Source of the DNA: an uncultured virus (IMG/VR IMGVR_UViG_3300030107_003216)
Taxonomy: Duplodnaviria; Heunggongvirae; Uroviricota; Caudoviricetes
Reading direction: 5' to 3' (one strand)
Virus record (IMG/VR): IMGVR_UViG_3300030107_003216
Location: 62,001 to 92,582 of that record
Length of the DNA: 30,582 nucleotides
The notes beneath the pieces were generated by a model. That model was not told where the DNA came from, ran no database searches, and worked only from the letters and a program-made list of their open reading frames with translations. The first letter of the stretch is position 1. Each line of letters begins with the position of its first letter. Position numbers and translations under genes: made by a program. This document shows, one piece after another, positions 1,151-21,597 of this stretch.

Positions 1151-1404
1151 TCTTCTTCGCCTCCTTTAATAATCTCATATCGAAAACCTCCCCATGCACC
1201 CTTATCTTTGACCTTAATCCAATTAGGTTTATACTCTTCAGCAAACCAACGCTTACCTGTGATTGTTCCGTATGGTGTCTTAACAGGTTGTGTAGTACTA
1301 TTGAGTCGAGCCTTCTTACCTTGCGTTTTCAACATCTCAACATCTTGTTCAGCGAACTCTTTAGTTTCCCATTCACTGTATGCTCTCATCCAACAGCCAC
1401 TCAT
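1147..1404 (-). CDS. Hypothetical protein
   Basis: ORF with ATGA overlaps on both sides. Confidence 0.65.
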   Translation of the reverse strand: MSGCWMRAYSEWETKEFAEQDVEMLKTQGKKARLNSTTQPVKTPYGTITGKRWFAEEYKPNWIKVKDKGAWGGFRYEIIKGGEEE

Positions 1405-1934
1405 TCCTCTTCATCTCCCCATTCTTGTACTCTTTCTGGTTCAAAGTCACGATAAATTTGTAATTGTTTTGGGTTTGTATTCTCCCAAAATCCATAATGA
1501 CCTACTCCGCCTAAAACAAAAGCAGTTTCCATTAATGGTTCCCAAATACTAACTGTTCTAATATCTGTTCCACTAAAATACGCACTGCCAAATGGATGAG
1601 TATGAATCCATGTCTTAATAGGTAATTTCATACCAACAGGGTCAATCTTGAAATCAACATAACCCGAAGTACCGGATGAAATAAATATCTTATCTTCTGA
1701 ATCAATAACAACTTGTACCTCTAATTTAGGTAGTATTTCTGTGGAAGCATGCCAAATACCTATCATTAATTCATCATTATGCCATGCGTCATTCTCATAT
1801 CCATTTCTAATGAAATATTCTGCTTCTGCTCTTGCTATTTCTAAATCTGCAAGGTATTTATCATACCCATCATCACCATTTCTTTTTTCTTCTTCTCTCA
1901 TAGCCCAATCACTGCTCTTGCTCATTATCGTCAC
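1401..1934 (-). CDS. JAB/JAMM (MPN+) metalloprotease, Ubl-processing or deubiquitinase-like; true start probably ATG 1925
   Basis: JAMM motif E..(LEVQV)...WIHTHPFGSAYFSGTD, i.e. HxHx7SxxD. Confidence 0.9.
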   Translation of the reverse strand: MTIMSKSSDWAMREEEKRNGDDGYDKYLADLEIARAEAEYFIRNGYENDAWHNDELMIGIWHASTEILPKLEVQVVIDSEDKIFISSGTSGYVDFKIDPVGMKLPIKTWIHTHPFGSAYFSGTDIRTVSIWEPLMETAFVLGGVGHYGFWENTNPKQLQIYRDFEPERVQEWGDEEE

Positions 1935-2580
1935 CTCTTAAATTTTTGAGTACCGATTGAGTTAGTTTCTCAATCTTTGCTTGTAGTTTGCGTATTTTAC
2001 TCACTTTACGCTTGACTCTCCACGATTCTTCAGTTAATGCGGCCAAGTGTAACTTCTTGACTCTAATCGTGTCTGTGGCCTTCATAACCTGCATAATATG
2101 TTCGGGTTCTGTGCTATCAACAAGGTATTCTAAACGACTTGCGATTTGCCCGTAACTTCGACCATATCGTGCTTTTGCTTCATCTATGCTTAATTCATAG
2201 AAATGGATTAACAAATCCAAATCCTTTTCAGAATCCCAAAAATCATCTGAATTAGATAAAGGCGTTACAAATACTGATTCGTTATTTGCCATGTATTCAC
2301 CTATTTCTTTTGCAAATTGCTCATAGGATGAAAAAGTACCTGTTGGGAAATCTTCTTCAATGCCAAGATAATGAGCAGTTTCTTCTTGAACCTCCACACT
2401 ATTACCAATTTCAGCGATTTCTTCAATTATTCGCTTATCTATTTTCTTAACTCTGTTTTTACATGCTGGAATGCTTCTCTGTAATTCTCTTGAAATGTCC
2501 TCCCAAGATACTTCATCATTCACATATTCCAACAATTGTGTTTCTTCTTCTTTACTCCATCTGCATGTCTTGTAATTCAT
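1909..2580 (-). CDS. Myb/SANT-like HTH repeat protein
   Basis: RWSKEEETQLL...SWEDISRELQRSIPACKNR and a second repeat FWDSEKDLDLL...YGRSYGQIASRL. Confidence 0.75.
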   Translation of the reverse strand: MNYKTCRWSKEEETQLLEYVNDEVSWEDISRELQRSIPACKNRVKKIDKRIIEEIAEIGNSVEVQEETAHYLGIEEDFPTGTFSSYEQFAKEIGEYMANNESVFVTPLSNSDDFWDSEKDLDLLIHFYELSIDEAKARYGRSYGQIASRLEYLVDSTEPEHIMQVMKATDTIRVKKLHLAALTEESWRVKRKVSKIRKLQAKIEKLTQSVLKNLRGDDNEQEQ

Positions 2581-2793
2581 TTACGCCACCATCTCTTCAT
2601 TTGTTTCTTGTTTGAATTCCCAATTATGGAAATACTCATGTCTGGCCAGAAACCCGCCAGCCTCATTCATTGGGCCAATATATTCTGCTGAACATATCGA
2701 ACACCAAACGGCTACTATTTTCTCATTCCAAATACAACCGTTCTTATCCTCATATTCGAGAATTTCTCCCACATTGTCTAAACTAAATTTCAT
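2581..2793 (-). CDS. C2H2-type Zn-finger microprotein
   Basis: CSIC...HEYFH; coupled to neighbouring genes. Confidence 0.7.
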   Translation of the reverse strand: MKFSLDNVGEILEYEDKNGCIWNEKIVAVWCSICSAEYIGPMNEAGGFLARHEYFHNWEFKQETNEEMVA

Positions 2794-3347
2794 GCGTTCA
2801 TCACCATGTATTCTTTTACATCTTCGCCATTAAACCATCTTTGCACCCATTGTGCGCCAATTCCTGCAATAGCGATTTGCATAAATTGTACTCCTTTATT
2901 TGTTCCATCCCAAGAATCTCCTTGACAAGAGAATGAACCGGATGGGCCAGCCAATAAGGTATCATACATCTTAGGGTCTGCTTTATGTGACACAAGCGCA
3001 GCATTTCTGCCTTGCGCTCTCAAATCGAGCCATTTAAGACTTGTGTTATACAAGGTCTTTCTGATGCCTAAATTATCCACACAACAGATAATCAAATCAT
3101 ATCCTTTCATTTGTTGTTCACTAAGAATAGGAAATCGGTGCGTGTTTAATACGCTATCATATCTTGCAATAGCATCCACTTTCTTTTTAGATATTTCTGA
3201 CTTTGTGAAGTTCTGATATGGTATATTCTTTGCTTCAACAATGTCGGGGTCTGCTACTGTGATAGCATACATATCCACCTTATCTAAGAATTGAATCAAG
3301 AATGACCCAATTCCGCCTGTTCCTATAACTAATACTGTTCTTTTCAT
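2790..3347 (-). CDS. ThiF/E1-like ubiquitin-like protein activating enzyme (minimal adenylation domain)
   Basis: VLVIGTGGIGS, ADPDIVEAKNIPYQNF, KKKV, DLIICCVDN..IR; candidate catalytic Cys in SFSCQ. Confidence 0.92.
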   Translation of the reverse strand: MKRTVLVIGTGGIGSFLIQFLDKVDMYAITVADPDIVEAKNIPYQNFTKSEISKKKVDAIARYDSVLNTHRFPILSEQQMKGYDLIICCVDNLGIRKTLYNTSLKWLDLRAQGRNAALVSHKADPKMYDTLLAGPSGSFSCQGDSWDGTNKGVQFMQIAIAGIGAQWVQRWFNGEDVKEYMVMNA

Positions 3348-3579: not shown

Positions 3580-4458
3580 TTATTCCCCTATAAAATTAAT
3601 ATCCTTTCCTTTCATTTCCTTTACTGTATCAAAACCAAGAAGGGATATAATCTTCTTAGTTTCTTTGTGGATATTCCATCTTCTGAACCCTGTTTTTTCA
3701 GAAATCAAAACCGAAGTAATATCATTTCTAACAAAGACATTTGCAGTTATCCAACAAACTGCCGCAAAATAACTCTGCGCTCTATTATGTTCTGCTCTAT
3801 TCAGAACAGGTTCTATTCTTTCTAAGACCTGTCTTGCTTGGAGATAAAACACATTGTCATCAGTAATTAGATTCAATACTCTTTGAAGGCTAAAAGAAGG
3901 ATTAGTTTGCTTTAGGATTCTATTACCATAATGCTGGTTAATCTTTCTTGTTAATCTCATTACTCTTGTTTTATTACAATCAAACTCGGAACATATCTCC
4001 TTGAAAGTATATGGTGTACCATTTTCTTTCAAAGCATAATGCACGATGGCGGCCCCTCGTTCTTCATAAGAATAGTTAGCCATTTTCTTTGCTGTATATA
4101 ATTCAAGATATATCTTCTCGACTCTTTCACCCAAATTCATTTGGGGTGCAATAGCGGCTAATGTCATATTACAGTGCATTAGCCCATTTTGCACATTCTT
4201 AGGAGTAACACTGTTCTTGCCAAACTTATTGAATTTAGAAGAACCTTTACCGCTAATTACTGAGCCTAATTTACCATTATCTGCTGAATGCACAACATCT
4301 CCTGTTTTATTCAAAATATGAACATTCTGTTCAAAGATTTCCTGTACTAAAACAAGTCCACAATCGTTGCAGATTCTTTCTCCCATTCTTTCATCAAAAT
4401 AATTCTCTGTTGCACCGCATTCATTACATTTCATTAAAATCAACTCTTTCATTGTCAT
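3580..4458 (-). CDS. tfb: Archaeal-type transcription initiation factor B (TFB/TFIIB) homologue
   Basis: N-terminal Zn ribbon CNECG...GERICNDCGLVL, a GKLGSVI linker and two cyclin-like repeats (AAIVHYA; AAVCWIT). Confidence 0.88.
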   Translation of the reverse strand: MTMKELILMKCNECGATENYFDERMGERICNDCGLVLVQEIFEQNVHILNKTGDVVHSADNGKLGSVISGKGSSKFNKFGKNSVTPKNVQNGLMHCNMTLAAIAPQMNLGERVEKIYLELYTAKKMANYSYEERGAAIVHYALKENGTPYTFKEICSEFDCNKTRVMRLTRKINQHYGNRILKQTNPSFSLQRVLNLITDDNVFYLQARQVLERIEPVLNRAEHNRAQSYFAAVCWITANVFVRNDITSVLISEKTGFRRWNIHKETKKIISLLGFDTVKEMKGKDINFIGE

Positions 4459-14019: not shown

Positions 14020-14181
14020 TGGCGGGCTATGCAGGATTTGAACCTGCGACCAACGGATGTCTTTTGGGGAAATAACTGTGTAAAGATAAAAAAACACATT
14101 ACCGAAAGGAGGTGATATGTTATTATTACTCGGCAAACCCCATTAAAAGCCCGTTGCGCTACCTGACTGCGCCAATAGCCC
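14020..14181 (-). tRNA. tRNA-Lys(UUU) with an 85-nt BHB intron at position 37/38 (14059-14143) and encoded CCA
   Basis: Acceptor GGGCTAT/ATAGCCC-G-CCA, D stem GCGC/GCGC, anticodon stem ACGGG/TCCGT, T arm GCAGG-TTCAAAT-CCTGC. Canonical BHB: CTTT/AAAG helix with TAA and ACA bulges, outer helix TGGGG/CCCCA. Confidence 0.93.
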
Positions 14182-14481: not shown

Positions 14482-14540
14482 AAATTCACCGACGATTTTA
14501 TCTCACTGTCATCGGTGTACGCATGAAAAAGTTGATACTA

Positions 14541-15029
14541 TCATTCTTCTTCATCAGATGGTGTTAGGCTTTCCAAAAGGCCATCCCAAGCACCTGTCGA
14601 ATACAACTTTTGCAGTTTTGCTCGCTCTCGCTTCATAACTACATTTGCATATTCTTCTGCATTTTCATACTGTCCTCCACCGGACTTAGTGTGCTTTAGA
14701 GTAATTACACTCATAATTGGGTGGTGGTTGTAGTAATTAGTTGCGGCTTCTGTAACCAATCCACAAATCTTGTCAATTGATACTCTAACTGCGGCTGGCA
14801 CATTTGATTTTGTTCCTCTTCTGCCGAAAGGTGAACCTTCTCTGCCTTTTAGGATAGCCTTTAGTGCTTTTTCACAAGGTTCTCTCTCTTCAGCATTTGC
14901 GGTTCCAATCTGCAAATTTAATTCAACGATTTGTCGTACACCTGCCGGTAGTGCGTCAGTTGCGACATACTCGTTGACCTCTGCAACCAATCCATTCCAT
15001 GTTTCTTCATCCATATTTTTCATCTCCAT
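14541..15029 (-). CDS. Hypothetical protein, paralogue family member 1 (start taken at MEMKNM)
   Basis: Shares RRG..S..P, H.[KR]SGG..Y and WDG with 16671-17195; the longer ORF start would overlap the promoter. Confidence 0.75.
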   Translation of the reverse strand: MEMKNMDEETWNGLVAEVNEYVATDALPAGVRQIVELNLQIGTANAEEREPCEKALKAILKGREGSPFGRRGTKSNVPAAVRVSIDKICGLVTEAATNYYNHHPIMSVITLKHTKSGGGQYENAEEYANVVMKRERAKLQKLYSTGAWDGLLESLTPSDEEE

Positions 15030-15068
15030 TTTTACGGGCCTCTCTCGGCCAAAATAGCACCACTCCGG

Positions 15069-15087
15069 CCCTATATTAAGGAGGACA
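15069..15087 (-). promoter_or_regulatory. Putative TATA-type promoter, copy 2, at the head of the left arm
   Basis: 19-bp identity with 8762-8780. Confidence 0.7.
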
Positions 15088-15199
15088 ATTACCAAAATTT
15101 TGCTTATTTTCTAATCGCTATGCGGGTGAGTATTTTTCCATTTTTTCACTAAATCAAACAAACAAGTTAATCCATTTTCGCCCATGTTAAGGTCAATGA

Positions 15200-15620
15200 A
15201 AGATAACTATTATTCTCACGATTGTTCGCATTTTGAGAAATATAGGTTGTGCAACACAACCCTATCAAAACACATCGAAACCTGCAAAAACAATACTTCT
15301 CTTCTCTTCTCATGGGGGGTGTCTTTTTTCATTTATTCTGTGGGGCATAAGTCCTCTATAATGATAGGGTTATGTAAGACCACTGAAAAAAGGCCTTCCC
15401 CCCATGAGAAATGAGAAATATGAGAAATATAAAAATAATAAATAATTTATGTTACACAACCCTTCCGTTTTGGCCTCGATTCTTCTCTTCTCATTCTTGA
15501 GAAACAATGAGAAGTATTGAACACTTCACCATTATATTGTATAATATTATTATTCATATAAGGTCAATTGAAGATAAGAGTAACAAATTGTTATTCTATT
15601 ATAGGACATATTTGTTGTAT
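15200..15620. repeat. AT-rich region with TGAGAA iterons and a 13-bp inverted repeat (origin-like or terminus-like)
   Basis: TTCTCATGGGGGG 15307-15319 / CCCCCCATGAGAA 15398-15410; about nine TGAGAA/TTCTCA copies; located at the strand switch. Confidence 0.6.
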
Positions 15621-15701
15621 AATTTTGTTCTGTGTTTATAGTCGAATTAGGTATGAGTCGCTTTGTGATGAAAACCCTGTACCAAATCGGAGAGTGAAGT
15701 T

Positions 15702-16439
15702 ATGGGCATAACATACACACGCACTATGACCTTCACTTACGAGGGTGACATAAACCATACGCAAGAAGCAAAGTTAGCAAAAGACCTTCAAGACAAGGGC
15801 TTGACACTATTTGCCAGATTTGGGCCAATACAGGAGTACGGCTTCAAAGAAGTGACTGAAGAAAGAACAGTTTGGGAAATACGACAATCAGACCCTAACG
15901 GTGACACACTAATGAGATGCAAGTGGAGAAGCGATGCACAGAAAGCATATGACGCATTCCACACTTTAGTTGATATTGAATTGGTTACTATTGAAACAAC
16001 CTCCACTTCTCAGCAGTGGGTTTCTGCTCAAGGTGCTTGGCTTCACTTTTCAGACGACCTATTGGATAAGTTAAGAGGCGATAAGGACATTTACAAGGGC
16101 AACCTATTGTACCACATGGAAAACGATGAGGATAACCACATTGTAATGCGACCATCATTAGTTTTGGACACCTATGGAAAGCATGTCTTAACATTTGAAA
16201 TTACTTGGAGTCCTGAAAAGATTCAGCGTAAAGACGCTATTGAATCCGCTATGGTTGATACTGTATTCAATGACATGGTTACTCTGAAGAAGATTATCGA
16301 AGGCAGACTGAAATTGAAGAAATACGGGATTGATGTTTCAAACCCTGAAGTGGACTGCAATTTCAAGGCTCATACTCTAAATGAGTCTAAGTGTGCGCCA
16401 GACATCATTCAGAATATCAAGGATGGCAAGAAGGGCTGA
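15702..16439 (+). CDS. Hypothetical protein
   Basis: 245-aa ORF with a GAGTGA Shine-Dalgarno and a downstream terminator. Confidence 0.8.
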   Translation: MGITYTRTMTFTYEGDINHTQEAKLAKDLQDKGLTLFARFGPIQEYGFKEVTEERTVWEIRQSDPNGDTLMRCKWRSDAQKAYDAFHTLVDIELVTIETTSTSQQWVSAQGAWLHFSDDLLDKLRGDKDIYKGNLLYHMENDEDNHIVMRPSLVLDTYGKHVLTFEITWSPEKIQRKDAIESAMVDTVFNDMVTLKKIIEGRLKLKKYGIDVSNPEVDCNFKAHTLNESKCAPDIIQNIKDGKKG

Positions 16440-16456
16440 TTCAATATGTCCTCAAA

Positions 16457-16514
16457 AAAACTCTCTAAATCTCAACTTCTTTAGAGGGTTTTCCCTGTAC
16501 GGACAGGGTTTTTT
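16457..16514 (+). terminator. Tandem hairpins plus U-tract
   Basis: AAAACTCTCTAAA/TTTAGAGGGTTTT, then CCCTGT-ACGG-ACAGGG-TTTTTT. Confidence 0.65.
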
Positions 16515-16519
16515 AACTG

Positions 16520-16551
16520 CAAAGCATTACAATACCATATGGTTGGCTTTG
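16520..16551. repeat. Palindromic element 1
   Basis: CAAAG-cattacaat-ACCATATGGT-tgg-CTTTG. Confidence 0.85.
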
Positions 16552-16670
16552 CCGTATAACGAAAACCCTAATGTGTACTCCCTCTTAGAAGGGGCTTGTA
16601 TGAATGCCAGACTTATTCGTATTCATACAAGCCCCGTAAGGGAAAGGCGCAACGGGAGGAATAATTAGCA

Positions 16671-17195
16671 TCATTCCTCTTCGTCGCCCTCCGTAGCGTC
16701 TGTGGTTGCCTCTTTAACAGGAGGTGGAGTCATCAATGGCACATTACCATCCATGGAACCATCCCAACGGGAACCGTTCTTATCTTTGTGTGCGTTAAGA
16801 AGCGCACGATAAGCCTTGTTACCCATCTCTTCTGCAAGGTCGTTAATAGTTGCATAAGCACCGCCAGAGCGACCATGCGGCAAGATAACCTTCAGAATTA
16901 CATCAGCATCAGTAAGTGCAGCAAAGGCACTGATAACTGTGTTCTTCACAGAAGTCGCATTTAGCAGAACTTCGTCTGGAAGGTCTGATTCTCGGCCTCT
17001 GCGGGCTGATGGGAAATCTGAGTATTTCTTACCAAGGTTTCTAATTGCACCCCAATAAGTATCTCTCTCATCGTCGTTTTCTGCGTCGTTTCCAAGCATG
17101 ATTGATAATTCAATCGCTGGATTGACGGGGCGAGCCTCTTTCTCAAGCCACAGTGTAACTTGAGCCGTGTTCATATTCCAATTCTCTATCTTCAT
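16671..17195 (-). CDS. Hypothetical protein, paralogue family member 2
   Basis: GGTGA Shine-Dalgarno; ERDTYWGAIRNLGKKYSDFP; acidic tail. Confidence 0.8.
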   Translation of the reverse strand: MKIENWNMNTAQVTLWLEKEARPVNPAIELSIMLGNDAENDDERDTYWGAIRNLGKKYSDFPSARRGRESDLPDEVLLNATSVKNTVISAFAALTDADVILKVILPHGRSGGAYATINDLAEEMGNKAYRALLNAHKDKNGSRWDGSMDGNVPLMTPPPVKEATTDATEGDEEE

Positions 17196-17290
17196 CTTAA
17201 ATCACCTAATTATAAGTGGTCTAATGCTTCATATTCCTCCCGAAGCAACCTAACTTGGTCGTGGAGTATAGGGTTGTAATTAAACAAGCG

Positions 17291-17330
17291 CAAAGCGATT
17301 ACAACCATATGGTCGTGCGATTTATCTTTG
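17291..17330. repeat. Palindromic element 2
   Basis: CAAAG-cgattaca-ACCATATGGT-12nt-CTTTG. Confidence 0.85.
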
Positions 17331-17377
17331 TTGAGTGACCCTAAACTTGACCGAAATGGTGTTATTGAGGAAAACCA

Positions 17378-18043
17378 ATGAAGTTGGATAACTACAATGA
17401 GAAGGTTGAACTCATCGAGCCGTGGTTGCTCAAGAAAAAGGAGGTTGTTGAAGCCGAACTTCAGCAATTTGACCCTAATTCTGATGACTACGACGAAAAG
17501 GCACACGAAGCCGTCAAAAAGCAGAAAAAACTGCTTGGTGGCGTTGAAATGAGCCTTGCGATGTGTGAATACCTTGATGATAGCCCCGAAGATACGAAAG
17601 AACGCGCTACTTATTGGAATACAATGAGAATTAGCGGCTCTAAGTTTTCTGATTGGCCTATTGAGAGCAAGAACACCGGCAGTAACCTAACCACTGAGCA
17701 AAAGGTCGTCGCAAACCACCAAAAACCGCTTGTAGCGGGCATTTTCAAGGAAGTGCTTGCTATTGACGGCGCAGAAATGGTTCTAAGACGCCTTATCACG
17801 CCAAGTGCGAGAAAAGGTGGCTGGTTCCCTCTTGGTTCTCTTGAGGATGAGATGAATAAGTTACACGATAAGGTCGTGAAGGTTGCACTAACCGACAAAC
17901 TCGACCGTATTTCACTCAAAGTGGAAGAAGATGTACTTAACAACATCAAAATGCCGCCTCTAAAGCCTAAAATCGAGCGAAAGCCGAAAAAGAAGGCCGA
18001 AGAAGCACCAAAAGCACCGGAATCGGCTGAAGAAGAGGAATAA
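17378..18043 (+). CDS. Hypothetical protein, paralogue family member 3
   Basis: ERATYWNTMRISGSKFSDWP aligns with member 2; acidic tail. Confidence 0.8.
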   Translation: MKLDNYNEKVELIEPWLLKKKEVVEAELQQFDPNSDDYDEKAHEAVKKQKKLLGGVEMSLAMCEYLDDSPEDTKERATYWNTMRISGSKFSDWPIESKNTGSNLTTEQKVVANHQKPLVAGIFKEVLAIDGAEMVLRRLITPSARKGGWFPLGSLEDEMNKLHDKVVKVALTDKLDRISLKVEEDVLNNIKMPPLKPKIERKPKKKAEEAPKAPESAEEEE

Positions 18044-18094
18044 TCCTCTAAATCAGCAGTATTCACGCTTGTTACGCCCAAATATGGGATTTTT

Positions 18095-18137
18095 GCCTTC
18101 GCAGGGGGTTCGCCCCCTGTGGAGGCTCATTTTTTTT
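18095..18137 (+). terminator. UUCG-loop hairpin plus U-tract
   Basis: GCCTTCGCAGGGGG-TTCG-CCCCCTGTGGAGGC-tca-TTTTTTTT. Confidence 0.8.
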
Positions 18138-18187
18138 GGATTTTGACCTATACCCCAAAATTTTAGCCCTCCCTACCCAATATTAAA

Positions 18188-18219
18188 CAAAGATACAATA
18201 CCATATGGTAGTGGCTTTG
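18188..18219. repeat. Palindromic element 3
   Basis: CAAAG-atacaat-ACCATATGGT-agtgg-CTTTG. Confidence 0.85.
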
Positions 18220-18257
18220 TCATTACCGTATCATAGTGTATTCTCACAATAGGTTAC

Positions 18258-18494
18258 TTGGAGAGATATATTATGTCAAGGTTGCATGTAATAATGGTTA
18301 AGCAAATGTCTAAAGGAATGGAAAAATATCAATTTGAAAAGTTCCAAGATGCACTATTCCTAACTATGGAGTCTAACGGATGCGAGTCCTTTTTGGCTAT
18401 TATGGAGGCTGAAGCAAAAGGATTCATGGATTGTGTTATGAGAGAAATGACAAAAGAAGCGGTATGGCTTGTGCAAGAATTATTGGGGGAGTAA
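18258..18494 (+). CDS. Hypothetical protein (start probably ATG 18273)
   Basis: First ORF of a small coupled operon. Confidence 0.6.
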   Translation: MERYIMSRLHVIMVKQMSKGMEKYQFEKFQDALFLTMESNGCESFLAIMEAEAKGFMDCVMREMTKEAVWLVQELLGE

Positions 18495-18496
18495 AA

Positions 18497-18613
18497 ATGA
18501 ATTGGAAAGAAACAGAAAATTACAAGAATTTTATCAAGAATGTAAAGAAGTACGGTATGAGTAAAACACAGTGGCGCAGATTGCGTCATGTTCAACAGGG
18601 GGTTAAACAATGA
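18497..18613 (+). CDS. Small basic hypothetical protein
   Basis: MNWKETENYKNF...; GGGGGAG Shine-Dalgarno; ATGA overlap with the next gene. Confidence 0.55.
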   Translation: MNWKETENYKNFIKNVKKYGMSKTQWRRLRHVQQGVKQ

Positions 18614-18810
18614 CTTGGAATCCACCACAAGGAAAATCAGATTTTATGATTGATAGCGAAACAATGACGGCTCACTTTTGGGCTGATAACAAAGAGGACT
18701 TGAAAACTATGCTAAACATGCAAATGGTGAGTTTAGCATTAGGGGGTTTCAAAATCAAGTGTTATGATGTTTCAGATGTTAAACCGGAAATATTTGGAGA
18801 TGATGAATGA
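18610..18810 (+). CDS. Hypothetical protein
   Basis: ORF with ATGA overlaps. Confidence 0.6.
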   Translation: MTWNPPQGKSDFMIDSETMTAHFWADNKEDLKTMLNMQMVSLALGGFKIKCYDVSDVKPEIFGDDE

Positions 18811-18887
18811 TGAAGATATTAATGTGTGTTAAGTGTGATAATTCTGTGGGGTTCTGTGTATCATTTGGATGCGTGGAACCCCCACTA
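18807..18887 (+). CDS. Cys-rich micropeptide (26 aa)
   Basis: MMKILMCVKCDNSVGFCVSFGCVEPH; ATGA overlap with the previous gene. Confidence 0.4.
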
Positions 18888-18904
18888 ATGGGGCAAGTAA
18901 ATTA

Positions 18905-18934
18905 CAAAGCAACCATATGGTTGTAATAACTTTG
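18905..18934. repeat. Palindromic element 4 (inverted relative to the others)
   Basis: Reverse complement reads CAAAG-ttattaca-ACCATATGGT-tg-CTTTG. Confidence 0.85.
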
Positions 18935-18959
18935 GATAATGAAATGTTACAACCCTATA

Positions 18960-19500
18960 CCTGCGGCCACAGTATTTAGTGCTGGAAGTAATTAATCCGG
19001 CAGACATTGACCGAATGCACCTTTGATAGCGGTGTAAGGTAAATTGTTTCGTGTGGTGCGACATCACCCATTTACAAGGCGTAATCTTGCGTGGAGTAAG
19101 TGGTAGCGATGAAAGTCCTTGAACCTCAAAAGGGGAGTCAATTAACTGTTGGCTTGGATAACAATTGTATGCGGGCTTTCTGAACAATAGAAAGTTATCA
19201 AAGTCAGTGCGAGCCAATCGCATCCGTATTAGTGAGTAGCCAATCTCCTATGTCACCCCTTTAGGGTTTGCCAATAATAAGGTTGAAGTTACATACATGG
19301 CGTAGTGATGTAATTAAATTGATTCCTTTCCCACCCATTATATTCCTATGGCGATTAGTGGCCATAAAACCATAGTGGAACAAACCGGAAACAATGCGTT
19401 GTAAGACCGATATGAATGTAGTAGCACTTTTGAGCCATGGTGACAAAGTGTGAAACACAGGGCCGTAATACGGAGTTTGGAGTACGGGGAGTTCCATTAG
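18960..19500. ncRNA. Putative structured non-coding RNA(s)
   Basis: No credible ORF, raised GC and many short hairpins, bounded by elements 4 and 5. Confidence 0.4.
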
Positions 19501-19517
19501 GGTTCGTTTCACTGTTA

Positions 19518-19546
19518 CAAAGATAAAACCATATGGTGTGGCTTTG
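19518..19546. repeat. Palindromic element 5
   Basis: CAAAG-ataaa-ACCATATGGT-gtgg-CTTTG. Confidence 0.85.
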
Positions 19547-19680
19547 CCAATAAAATGAACTCCCTATTGGGCCACCCACTGCAATAGATTCAGTAATCCC
19601 CTTCCTAAGAGGTTTCCAAATTACCTATTACCCGTATCAAACTCTATGAACAGGATTCTATTACAGTGGGTGGTGGAACA

Positions 19681-19926
19681 TCAGTCTTTAGGCTTCCAGC
19701 CCTTCTTCCAAACCGGCAAGTGAGGATAGGGCTTAGAGCCAAGTATTCTAATAGCAGTCCAATATATGTCTTTATTATATTCCATTTCATCTTCTTCAGT
19801 TTTGAAGTATAAAACGCATGAAAAACGCATAGCAGTAATAACAGCGCATTTATCGTCTTGCTCATCTATCCAATTCAATATCCAATGGACTCTTTCATCT
19901 CTTCTTTGTGTCATTTTAATCACCAT
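19681..19926 (-). CDS. Hypothetical protein (start possibly MTQRR)
   Basis: ORF immediately downstream of 19920-20249. Confidence 0.6.
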   Translation of the reverse strand: MVIKMTQRRDERVHWILNWIDEQDDKCAVITAMRFSCVLYFKTEEDEMEYNKDIYWTAIRILGSKPYPHLPVWKKGWKPKD

Positions 19927-20249
19927 ACCTGTGGAATACCATCACCAATGTATTGATTTGTTCCAGCCCAATAAGTACCGTTTAGATACCACATATAGTT
20001 GCGTTGAACGATGTTAACATTTGGTAGCGCATTCAATCTGTTCTTGGTAGTGCGTGTCATAAATCCACTGTGACTAATCCAGAGTTGTTCGCTTCTTGGT
20101 GTAACCCATGCAATTACATTACCATGTAATAGCATTTCAGAAGATAGTCCTTCAAGTCCATCATCAAACACTTGAACTACTGTATTACCTCTCTTGAATG
20201 GTATTTTATTCATCAGTGCATAAGCCGCATCAATATCAATTTGTGCCAT
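19920..20249 (-). CDS. Conserved phage hypothetical protein
   Basis: LHGNVIA...L.IS..GF.TRTTKNRLNA pattern, recalled from small phage proteins of unknown function. Confidence 0.75.
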   Translation of the reverse strand: MAQIDIDAAYALMNKIPFKRGNTVVQVFDDGLEGLSSEMLLHGNVIAWVTPRSEQLWISHSGFMTRTTKNRLNALPNVNIVQRNYMWYLNGTYWAGTNQYIGDGIPQVW

Positions 20250-20285
20250 AATTATTCTTGGCTTTAACCTTCAGACAGGGTTTTG

Positions 20286-20308
20286 CAAAGCACAACCATA
20301 TGGCTTTG
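20286..20308. repeat. Palindromic element 6
   Basis: CAAAG-caca-ACCATATGG-CTTTG. Confidence 0.8.
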
Positions 20309-20435
20309 TTCAAAATTTTTATTTCTATCTTCTCATTCAAATATTGGGTTCTAAAGGCTCTTGTTTAGCACTTTTGGCTTTAATTATCATAGAGATTAGC
20401 CGCAGCATTTATATGATGAGCCACTTTGGACATTA

Positions 20436-20672
20436 TTGTTTGATATGGCCGATGGTGACGAGGCATTAGAGATACTGAATGATATTAATAAATACATTAA
20501 AGAAATGATAGACGATATTAAGCAAAAAAGAAAGTCACCGCAGCAAATAGACGATACCGACAATAGCAAATTAGACAAGATTACCAAACAATTAAGAGAT
20601 GCTAAAACCAAAATAACAGAATATATTAATCTAATATACAGACAAACTTCACTATCTGATTTCAAGCAATAA
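20436..20672 (+). CDS. Coiled-coil hypothetical protein
   Basis: ORF with typical composition; start uncertain. Confidence 0.5.
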   Translation: MFDMADGDEALEILNDINKYIKEMIDDIKQKRKSPQQIDDTDNSKLDKITKQLRDAKTKITEYINLIYRQTSLSDFKQ

Positions 20673-20814
20673 ATAAAACCACATAATTAAATGATATGAT
20701 TTTTATTCTGGGAATATAAATGAGAAAAATTAAAACCGGGCGCAAGTGCCAAAAAAATTCCGCCACATTTTTTGAGAGATTTTACTTATGAACAAATAAC
20801 AGGAATTGATTATT

Positions 20815-21096
20815 ATGACATGGAAAGACAGAATTAAGAAACAACAACTTAATGAAACTTTGTTGAATAGAAATCTCCTAAAAATACAAGAAGATATGGA
20901 AAATAAATTGATGAAAGATTCATCCACTATTTATGAGTTTCTTTTAGAGAAGGTTTTTTCTAATGATAGAGATAATAAAACATATAGAGAATTAGAAGAT
21001 ATGACAGAAAATCTTAGATTTGATACGCTGAATTTATTAGAGAAAAAAATGAAAGAATACATTTCAGAATTAGTGGATATAATTGAGAGTGATTAA
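20815..21096 (+). CDS. N-terminal-tag protein (MTWKDRIKK)
   Basis: Shared N-terminal motif; start reassigned to the motif ATG. Confidence 0.75.
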   Translation: MTWKDRIKKQQLNETLLNRNLLKIQEDMENKLMKDSSTIYEFLLEKVFSNDRDNKTYRELEDMTENLRFDTLNLLEKKMKEYISELVDIIESD

Positions 21097-21097
21097 T

Positions 21098-21397
21098 ATG
21101 ACATGGAAAGATATACTAAAAGAAATTTATCCTAAAGGAGAAGAACCGAGAGGGTATAAAAGAAGTCAAGAATTAAAAAGAATGGCCTATAAAATTATGA
21201 AAGATAGGTATGGGGAAAAGGAGTTTAGATTAACAAGCCCAAGAAAGCATAGTCCAAAAATGAGAGGGGAATACGAGCATTTAATTGAATTATTGAGAGG
21301 CGGTATGTCGCCTGATATGGCGGCTAAACAACCCTATGTTCCTAAACCACGCACAACTAAAGAGGAAGATGATGCAGGAGAAGGATGGGAAAGGTGA
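21098..21397 (+). CDS. N-terminal-tag protein (MTWKDILKE)
   Basis: Shared motif; GAGTGA Shine-Dalgarno. Confidence 0.75.
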   Translation: MTWKDILKEIYPKGEEPRGYKRSQELKRMAYKIMKDRYGEKEFRLTSPRKHSPKMRGEYEHLIELLRGGMSPDMAAKQPYVPKPRTTKEEDDAGEGWER

Positions 21398-21402
21398 TTA
21401 AT

Positions 21403-21597
21403 ATGACATGGAAAGATATAATTAAACAAGACGAGCAAAGCAGAATAGAAAGATTTAGAAGCCATTTAGAAAAGAACCCTTTTTTGAAAACAAAACATGG
21501 GGCAGAAGCAGAAGCACTTATTCCTCAATTACAACAAGCAATAGGAACTCCCCAATTTGAACAATTGGCTTCTTCTATTACTTGGTATAAGATTTGA
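21403..21597 (+). CDS. N-terminal-tag protein (MTWKDIIKQ)
   Basis: Shared motif; AGGTGA Shine-Dalgarno. Confidence 0.75.
   Translation: MTWKDIIKQDEQSRIERFRSHLEKNPFLKTKHGAEAEALIPQLQQAIGTPQFEQLASSITWYKI

Follow-up and report, generated by a model that had tools for sequence, protein, structure and literature searches.

The closest described systems are found in phages of bacteria and in viruses of archaea. T4-type phages carry PeSLs, regulatory motifs that double as points of exchange; the available text of the source describes them as a bacterial sigma-70 early promoter plus a terminator stem-loop, acting one way (PMC4122927). Several archaeal viruses, SIRV2 and SMV2 among them, have repeated early-gene regulatory sequences, some with inverted repeats proposed as sites of virus-encoded repressors (PMC11065993); the available text of that source makes no mention of magroviruses or Poseidoniales. 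Here we analyze a 30,582-nucleotide (nt) stretch of DNA (hereafter the window), bases 62001-92582 of a 92,582-bp IMG/VR record (IMGVR_UViG_3300030107_003216) that is rated 98% complete and that we predict, from its gene content, to be the genome of a group-B magrovirus. The window contains six copies of a palindromic element, CAAAG-N-ACCATATGG(T)-N-CTTTG, and the intervals between them hold small genes and a structured RNA. We propose that the element is probably a shared operator or upstream site of divergent promoters and also a recombination joint.

The array resembles the PeSLs of T4-type phages in having a short regulatory motif that marks where small genes, mostly of unknown function, adjoin one another in a hyperplastic region. 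In both, the motif joins a promoter (a predicted one in the magrovirus) to the end of the preceding unit, and related viruses differ there by exchange of otherwise unrelated sequences (for the PeSLs, as given in the available text of PMC4122927). Unlike the PeSLs, the magrovirus element is a perfect 10-bp dyad without a folding signal; it has archaeal-type TATA-like boxes on one or both sides and a far shorter shared sequence. Recombination in the magrovirus array is predicted from sequence comparison. Like the early-gene sequences of SIRV2 and SMV2, one conserved motif is repeated before clustered, small, mostly single-gene units in a variable part of the genome. The SIRV2 and SMV2 sequences have a canonical B recognition element (BRE) and TTTAWATA, with inverted repeats that overlap the BRE (PMC11065993, available text), whereas in the magrovirus a non-canonical ACC-YATA box follows the dyad at about 20 nt, and the dyad is common to divergent units. 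We found no published description of the element in the literature searched. The papers listed for CCATATGG in archaea gave no lead on it, and the magrovirus literature searched contained no text on palindromes, promoters, or sequence motifs.

An earlier sequence-only reading of the window had placed six elements in it, and ACCATATGG starts at exactly those positions: 16534, 17304, 18200, 18912, 19528, and 20295. With up to one mismatch, ACCATATGG has 22 matches in the window, where 5.67 are expected, and none of 100 shuffles attained this number. The pattern CAAAG-N(3-12)-CCATATGG-N(0-16)-CTTTG has 10 strand-wise matches (0.00 expected), which are the six elements. The same reading saw no copies elsewhere in the window, and this is also true of the entire 92,582-bp record, in which only these six copies have the full pattern; the bare 8-mer CCATATGG occurs at two extra places in the genome. 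The box set consists of the 10-bp dyad, ACCATATGGT, and CAAAG and CTTTG at 9-13 nt from the dyad center. The arms are asymmetric, as had been noted (left/right lengths of 9/3, 8/12, 7/5, 2/8, 5/4, and 4/0 for copies 1-6), and copy 4 is indeed inverted, with its long arm on the side opposite to that of copies 1 and 3. All six elements lie outside the accepted genes; the only overlaps are with short, probably spurious open reading frames (ORFs). Consecutive elements are 770, 896, 712, 616, and 767 bp apart. The reported spacing range of 616-896 bp therefore stands, but the regularity read into it merely reflects the size of the units. The array is at the junction of a long minus-strand arm and a long plus-strand arm. 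Cumulative GC skew turns at the array (minimum at about 15-17 kb of the window), and the G+C content there is 0.38-0.44, compared to 0.31-0.39 in the rest.

The motif is conserved in relatives. A pattern scan of IMG/VR found at least 178 stretches with the element. Among the matches listed, 157 loci have a countable copy and 63 have two or more elements, with overlapping loci of one contig counted separately. We checked 45 records whole; 22 of them carry 2-9 copies, and a reversed-pattern control on the 45 records found zero. Copy positions cover the matches listed, which are about half of all matches in the 45 records. Among these, the copies of each record sit within one 3-8-kb stretch, except in a 184.7-kb record that has two arrays and two TFB-like genes. 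Of 434 half-sites in elements aligned on the core, 325 have CTTTG 9-13 nt from the dyad center. There is a third box pair no more than 30 nt past CTTTG: ACCCTA is found in 63 near and 3 far windows, and ACCTTA in 61 and 3, respectively.

This outer box has the form ACC-(0-2 nt)-YATAWA and occurs 3-18 nt past the element, on the side where a unit leaves. It resembles an archaeal TATA box in sequence, and its distribution depends on direction. An ACCYTA box is present on 44/76 leaving sides and 13/68 arriving sides when ORFs of at least 60 amino acids (aa) are counted (p = 3e-6), and on 26/38 leaving and 6/37 arriving sides for ORFs of at least 100 aa (p = 6e-6). T-runs or terminator-like sequences have the reversed trend (11/76 leaving and 20/68 arriving sides). 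Judged from sequence, promoter-like boxes are thus enriched on leaving sides and T-runs or hairpins on arriving sides; this may correspond to the promoter and terminator composite of the PeSLs, but with a promoter of archaeal and not sigma-70 type. Most leaving sides scored as box-less carry variants, for example ACCCCATATA or ACCTCATAT. A looser definition of the box, ACC[CT][CT], gave little difference (88/123 versus 81/132) and was rejected; it did not separate promoter boxes from the complement of terminator stems rich in G, which hid the direction effect, and was replaced by ACCYTA. We also dropped the idea that the long arm holds an upstream TATA. The trend is weak and in reverse, with the long arm tending to the gene-leaving side (28:19 versus 19:32, p = 0.04).

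The distance from the box to the predicted start is that usual for archaeal TATA boxes. In five of five orthologues of the 174-aa gene, a member of a protein family that we call F1, the box is 24-29 nt from the start of a repeat in the 5′ untranslated region (UTR), the first conserved transcribed feature. Two genes of the window appear to be of the leaderless type. A 245-aa gene is preceded by CTTTG (15661-15665) and by ACCCTG (15674-15679), the latter 28 nt before the ATG, and for a 109-aa gene, the mRNA of which would be nearly leaderless, this distance is 32 nt. The dyad center is 45-65 nt upstream of the predicted starts. The box and the dyad have ACC-N-TA in common, often with the preceding CAA too. 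No purine-rich BRE is evident at the box, and the box is not TTTAWATA (archaeal promoter layout is described in general terms in the available text of PMC5569661). At the P4 box, RNA contigs begin at 18990, 9-14 nt past the predicted start, and the sequence of a relative diverges from 18978; we take the contig starts as a weak hint in support of this start. For the 174-aa unit, RNA contigs end at 17229 and 17233 and so miss the predicted start by about 20 nt, but they are from variant strains and we draw nothing from them. Among the RNA contig pieces listed, 15 in number, there is no overlap with a dyad, and this was not used as evidence. Positions of the elements, boxes, and units are given in Table 1.

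Table 1. Predicted features of the element array and of the genome around it (window positions unless stated otherwise)
Feature	Position	Strand	Description
P1	16520..16551		CAAAG, 9-nt arm, ACCATATGGT dyad, 3-nt arm, CTTTG; between 245-aa gene terminator and 174-aa gene 3′ end
P2	17291..17330		Between divergent 174-aa (-) and 221-aa (+) genes; long arms on both sides, 8 and 12 nt
P3	18188..18219		3′ of 221-aa gene terminator, 5′ of small-gene run
P4	18905..18934		Long arm right; upstream of structured RNA
P5	19518..19546		Between non-coding interval and 3′ end of 81-aa/109-aa pair
P6	20286..20308		Core ends in C, right arm absent; between 109-aa gene (-) and start of right-hand + arm
ACCCTA box	16565..16570	+	P1 right side; faces 119-nt non-coding stretch with long hairpin, no ORF after
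ACCCTA box	17269..17274	-	P2 left side; 24 nt before 5′ repeat of 174-aa unit
ACCCTA box	17338..17343	+	P2 right side; 40 nt before ATG of 221-aa gene
Variant box ACC-G-TATCATA	18225..18235	+	P3 right side; about 48 nt before ATG at 18273
ACCCTA box	18952..18957	+	P4 right side; start predicted 24-29 nt on, at 18976-18981
ACCCTA box	19498..19503	-	P5 left side; faces non-coding interval
ACCCTG variant box	20276..20281	-	P6 left side; 32 nt before ATG of 109-aa gene
Unit 1	16671..17195	-	174-aa F1-family protein
Unit 2	17378..18043	+	221-aa F1 paralogue, then hairpin and T8 run at 18095-18137
Unit 3	18273..18810	+	3-4 small overlapping ORFs (to 18494, 18497-18613, 18610-18810), each after a GGAG/GGGG Shine-Dalgarno-like site
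Unit 4	18978..19390	+	Structured RNA, putative distant manA-like relative
Unit 5	19681..20249	-	109-aa gene (Pfam Kyano_Gp96, 46.6 bits), then 81-aa F1-like fragment
Neighboring unit without dyad	15702..16439	+	245-aa gene; ends in hairpin and T6 at 16493-16514
TFB/TFIIB homologue	3580..4458	-	292 aa; zinc ribbon and two cyclin folds; outside array
ATP-dependent ligase domains	genome 12289-14802 and 58026-59552		One inside structural block

Comparison of related genomes shows that the units between elements are shuffled. In five of five genomes the order, number, content, and orientation of units vary, while the array is always between the minus-strand replication arm (after the helicase end) and the plus-strand arm. 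Two relatives carry the closest orthologues of the 174-aa unit (62% and 48% identity) in the opposite orientation with respect to the same flanking arms. In 21 array regions, 21% of 380 homology-block ends are within 20 nt of a dyad, versus 7% for random places, although the count of 380 is inflated by reciprocal hits and by overlapping, redundant loci. With query loci de-duplicated, there are 43 block ends within 45 nt of a dyad; 38 of these cross the dyad center and 35 stop 5-24 nt beyond it. Homology thus covers a unit and the adjoining side of the element, and is lost within the element. This breaking of homology at the motif is a trait shared with the PeSLs, with a counter-case in the three replacements described below. 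The block ends fit exchange in the element, but are equally expected of any conserved island between unrelated neighbors. The description of the locus as a cassette-like array holds in that units are bounded by the element family-wide and homology between relatives ends inside it.

Integron attC sites are conserved in folded structure and need IntI and attI, and integron cassettes are mostly promoter-less and in one direction. The magrovirus array is similar in that short units are separated by imperfect palindromes with fixed ends and content varies among relatives, and the sequence-only reading had likened the elements to attC sites. We looked for four defining features (fold, IntI/attI, promoter-less cassettes, and a single orientation) and found none of them. 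The element is conserved in sequence and not in fold, units have their own promoter-like boxes in both directions, and no known recombinase family was matched among the approximately 131 ORFs of the genome. The element is thus not attC. The search behind the last point used Pfam and PHROGs at E <= 1e-3 and found no integrase, tyrosine or serine recombinase, transposase, HUH nuclease, or protelomerase, which extends to the full genome the earlier remark that no recombinase is visible in the window. A Cas4-like PD-(D/E)XK nuclease and an ERCC4 nuclease are present in the genome.

We predict that the element is the center of a 60-70-bp intergenic control region that heads the small accessory units of group-B magroviruses. 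The ACC-YATA box may be a TATA-like core promoter read by the host RNA polymerase, possibly with participation of a TFB encoded by the virus. The dyad, from its position upstream of the starts, would bind a dimeric regulator, by which all units would be turned on or off at once, as a single temporal class. Because the box and the dyad share the half-site ACC-N-TA, a regulator nucleating on the dyad could spread to both TATA-like boxes and so shut both divergent promoters. The terminator-like ends of incoming units would adjoin the control region. Since the same approximately 30 bp are present at every border, recombination between copies may delete, insert, exchange, or flip units; flipping would be as easy as deletion because the palindrome is its own inverted repeat. 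Repressor operators were among the alternatives given in the sequence-only reading, and that suggestion comes close to our explanation. Our view of the dyad as a protein site, of the effect of its regulator (activation or repression), and of the type of recombination (general or dedicated) is inferred. For the other suggestions made there (a nicking, ejection, or packaging signal) we found nothing in support.

Several observations weigh against the explanation of the element as operator and recombination joint. Gene calls were made with a longest-ORF heuristic, and 29 of 143 elements fall inside a called ORF. The ACCYTA box also occurs on the arriving sides noted above (13 of 68). Distances of 3-18 nt from CTTTG to the box and of approximately 14-50 nt from the dyad center to the box are loose for a single rigid complex. 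The box is not the canonical TTTAWATA, yet a canonical archaeal TATA box, TTTATATG, is present at 20408-20415, 30 nt upstream of the start codon (20445) with which the long plus-strand arm begins; the virus may therefore use at least two promoter types. The orientations of flanking ORFs are near uniform, with 32 (+,+), 30 (-,-), 25 (+,-), and 25 (-,+), and many elements therefore have no protein gene leaving on one or both sides. P1 and P5 are between converging units, and their boxes face non-coding stretches of approximately 120-135 nt. The RNA evidence consists of assembled contigs. A relative that is 90-95% identical (one DNA contig) retains elements 3-6 and has replacements at 18500-18548, 18613-18783, and 18978-19328, the last of which begins at the predicted RNA start. 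None of the three ends at a dyad, so recent exchange is not confined to the element. The copies are identical only over 10 bp and two 5-bp boxes, which is short for ordinary homologous recombination.

A further consideration is that the genome encodes a full-length homologue of TFB/TFIIB. The TFIIB zinc ribbon was identified with 30.1 bits (cut-off 29), and the protein matches human TFIIB over residues 22-171 (E = 5e-8). A profile built from 11 viral homologues matches human TFIIB with E = 1.9e-12 and, over both cyclin folds, the Pyrococcus woesei TFB core (1D3U/1AIS, TBP-TFB-BRE/TATA crystal structures) with E = 3e-11. The AlphaFold2 (AF2) model has a pLDDT of 77.0, and all 30 Foldseek matches with E <= 0.001 are TFIIB, TFB, or Brf. 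The gene is found in 19/22 array-bearing records and in 3/23 single-hit records; this co-occurrence shows common descent, not function. We consider the virus TFB a candidate reader of the unit promoters. A virus-encoded TFB/TFIIB homologue is not mentioned in the magrovirus literature searched.

The presence of this protein raises another way to read the dyad, as a two-way core promoter with a TATA-like center (ATAT) and inverted BRE-like boxes (CAACC / GGTTG), at which the virus TFB would steer the host RNA polymerase both ways; the outer ACC-YATA boxes would then be one-way copies. The BRE sets the direction of archaeal transcription, and the cyclin folds of the encoded TFB are those that hold the BRE-reading helix-turn-helix in Pyrococcus TFB. 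The common arm end together with the dyad (…CAA-CCATAT) is also similar to the left flank plus outer box (…CAA-CCCTAT / CCTTAT). The occurrence of the TFB gene in 19 of 22 array-bearing records would agree with this, but it is lineage-wide and without functional weight. We consider a two-way core promoter unlikely, given that the first transcribed feature of F1 genes is 45-65 nt from the dyad center instead of approximately 25 nt, and its distance to the outer box is 24-29 nt. G:C pairs make up half of the would-be TATA, and CAAAG/CTTTG would be left unexplained. It is very unlikely that the element works by folding into a hairpin, whether in RNA or in single-stranded DNA (a two-way terminator, processing site, or insulator at unit ends), even though its three box pairs are mutually complementary and a weak stem can be drawn. 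Complementarity between the two arms of an element is 0.63, compared to 0.74 +/- 0.11 for swapped partners (139 elements), without arm-to-arm covariation, and we rejected an arm-to-arm hairpin. Own arms are no more complementary than arms of other elements, hence our statement that sequence and not fold is conserved. Bases on either side of CTTTG can pair in 67% of the half-sites (n = 286) versus 52% expected, and mean local folding energy is slightly stronger than with swapped flanks (-0.94 versus -0.71 +/- 0.04 kcal/mol). This effect is real but very small, and mini-hairpins with a CTTTG loop were dropped; in the window 7/12 half-sites fold at 0.0 kcal/mol and the best at -2.6. Terminator-like T-runs and G+C hairpins are outside the element, on arriving sides.

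Shuffling of the units could alternatively be the work of a dedicated integron- or shufflon-like system, with the dyad as crossover site and a recombinase of no known family that actively excises, inserts, and inverts units. Units are gained, lost, reordered, and flipped among relatives, most nearby homology ends (38/43) cross the dyad center, and a perfect dyad is typical of recombinase core sites. The approximately 10-20 bp common to copies suits a site-specific or microhomology mechanism more than general homologous recombination, and many ORFs of the genome have no family. We judge such a system quite improbable. No known recombinase family was matched in the Pfam and PHROGs search, the strong link between element and outward box is explained without recombination, and the exchanges in the near-identical relative are away from the dyad. 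BLAST blocks must also end near any conserved island with differing flanks, so block ends place no crossover. If a dedicated recombinase were present, promoter-carrying units, including an RNA gene and end-paired mRNAs, would be flipped, excised, and inserted, and the population would be a shuffled library of accessory genes. Lastly, the elements could be sites like the origin recognition boxes (ORBs) of archaea, at a viral replication origin located at the strand switch. We regard this as extremely unlikely. Archaeal ORB and mini-ORB sites have a short dyad of the CCA…TGG type, which the repeated dyad near the strand switch may resemble. Gene direction and GC skew do switch at the array, but skew changes with gene direction in any case. 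Unlike ORBs, each magrovirus copy is linked to a promoter box that points outward. Expressed genes occupy the 0.6-0.9 kb between copies, and the copies do not surround an A+T-rich unwinding stretch; the array is instead richer in G+C than the rest of the window. There is no Orc1/Cdc6 family match in the genome, and copy number is 2-9 among relatives.

Each of the five intervals is one self-contained unit, as had been proposed: a gene, a gene, a run of small genes, an RNA, and a gene pair. Their orientations vary (-, +, +, +, and -). Parts of several units are found as contigs in RNA libraries. The F1 family consists of all-alpha proteins of 150-230 aa with acidic tails, with 1-4 members per genome. 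It has no relative in Pfam, PHROGs, or the PDB (a PDB profile search gave no significant match). An AF2 model (pLDDT 77.8) is all-alpha, and Foldseek found no match at E <= 0.001. The 109-aa protein is the sole unit protein with a PHROGs or Pfam match (phrog_554, Kyano_Gp96), and NCBIfam has zero matches for the three unit proteins submitted. The Kyano_Gp96/phrog_554 family (109-aa protein, 19920-20249, minus strand) is known from T4-like cyanophages, and by this match the gene family is common to an archaea-assigned virus and marine bacterial phages. The homologue of the neighboring 245-aa gene is flanked by two dyads in one relative.

F1 genes inside arrays are bracketed by a 15-23-bp repeat, with one copy 1-4 nt past the stop codon and the other ending 14-31 nt before the ATG. 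For the 174-aa gene, the inverted repeat is at about 16649-16671 and 17229-17250. The repeat differs among genes and stays complementary; 20/35 genes match their own 3′ partner better than any of the other 34. A 15-23-bp stem is predicted to form between the two UTRs and to close the entire ORF. The stems of the 35 genes have no consistent bulge-helix-bulge pattern. Two non-coding stretches, 16552-16670 (119 nt) and 19547-19680 (134 nt), are each past a dyad with an outward box, each have a long hairpin, and each face an F1-family gene at its 3′ end. Either small RNAs or the terminators of these genes could lie there.

The RNA of unit 4, about 300-400 nt long, has 81 predicted pairs, 36 of them with compensatory changes in an alignment of five sequences. 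Pairing is 93.8%, versus 37-44% with slid partners, and 0/500 shuffles attain the observed values. The single-sequence fold z-score is not decisive (-1.48; 0.20 for the minus strand). A dyad and a box of the ACC-…ATA type (ACCATATAC or ACCTTAATA) are upstream of the RNA in 3/4 of the homologues. Three homologues match manA (Rfam RF01745) with 41.9-48.1 bits (E = 1e-8 to 2e-10), and the window RNA scores 14.5 bits (E = 0.26), all below the gathering score of 55.2. For the window RNA, Rfam gives nothing at E <= 0.1. From this significant likeness, we predict that the RNA is a distant relative of manA and not a filed member. The window copy has an insert of approximately 70 nt. A contig equal to 18990-19334 (345 nt), with zero mismatches, was found in two metatranscriptome studies, and it is the deepest of their contigs in this region. 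As contigs cannot show strand, ends, or level, we treat this as a weak hint of expression.

Assignment of the genome to the group-B magroviruses was by gene traits compared with those in PMC5434244, not by phylogeny. The available text of this source (Philosof et al.) describes magroviruses as viruses that reach high abundance in the ocean and assigns them to Marine Group II archaea, which are uncultivated; group B is characterized by a split family-B DNA polymerase (PolB), two ATP-dependent ligases (one in the structural block), a bacterial-type GroEL, ribonucleotide reductase (RNR), and a genome of approximately 65-100 kb. In a Pfam and PHROGs search of the whole record we found this gene set: PolB split over two ORFs, two ligases, a GroEL-type chaperonin (Cpn60), RNR, a portal protein, and an SU10-like capsid protein. 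An RFC-like clamp loader and an ERCC4/HhH nuclease are also encoded. We therefore assign the genome to a group-B magrovirus, a tailed virus, with Marine Group II archaea as the predicted host. Among deposited phage records, the best matches of the polymerase are haloarchaeal tailed viruses, at 23-25% identity. Window positions 14500-21500 had zero blastn matches to 50,697 phage records. Sequencing runs that contain the stretch carry the label marine metagenome.

An archaeal host fits the full-length TFB homologue and a tRNA-Lys-like gene with an insertion. This tRNA-Lys(UUU)-like gene, at 14023-14181 on the minus strand, scores 53.1 bits in Rfam and is missed by ARAGORN. Its 86-nt insertion comes after anticodon-loop position 37/38, folds as helix-bulge-helix, and holds a stretch like the 3′ end of 16S rRNA (AUCACCUCCU). 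An Rfam scan of the window at gathering scores gave tRNA only. Upstream of the array, 15096-15701 is a region of 600 nt without a credible ORF, between two units. Back-to-back TAGGTT/AACCCTA boxes occur there at about 15243-15270 without a dyad, along with further single boxes, and parts of the region are kept in relatives (42-55-nt blastn matches). In the replication arm, adjacent ORFs at 1401-3347 on the minus strand have a ThiF/E1-like domain (52.6 bits) and, with scores below cut-off, a Myb-like DNA-binding domain and a weak JAB-like one; together they may be a ubiquitin-like modification set. The Myb-like protein (223 aa) is encoded at 1909-2580.

Our literature search found no published account of magrovirus gene control. 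The element provides a testable grammar for it, in which a dyad has boxes on its flanks and a TATA-like box is set at a constant distance from the start. The element could be used to pick out accessory, possibly early or anti-defence, genes from sequence alone and would be a marker of the hyperplastic region in metagenomes. The candidate virus TFB could redirect host transcription. If the proposed roles are correct, a regulatory motif that doubles as a shuffling joint, an idea that comes from the T4-type phages, would extend to a virus with an archaeal host.

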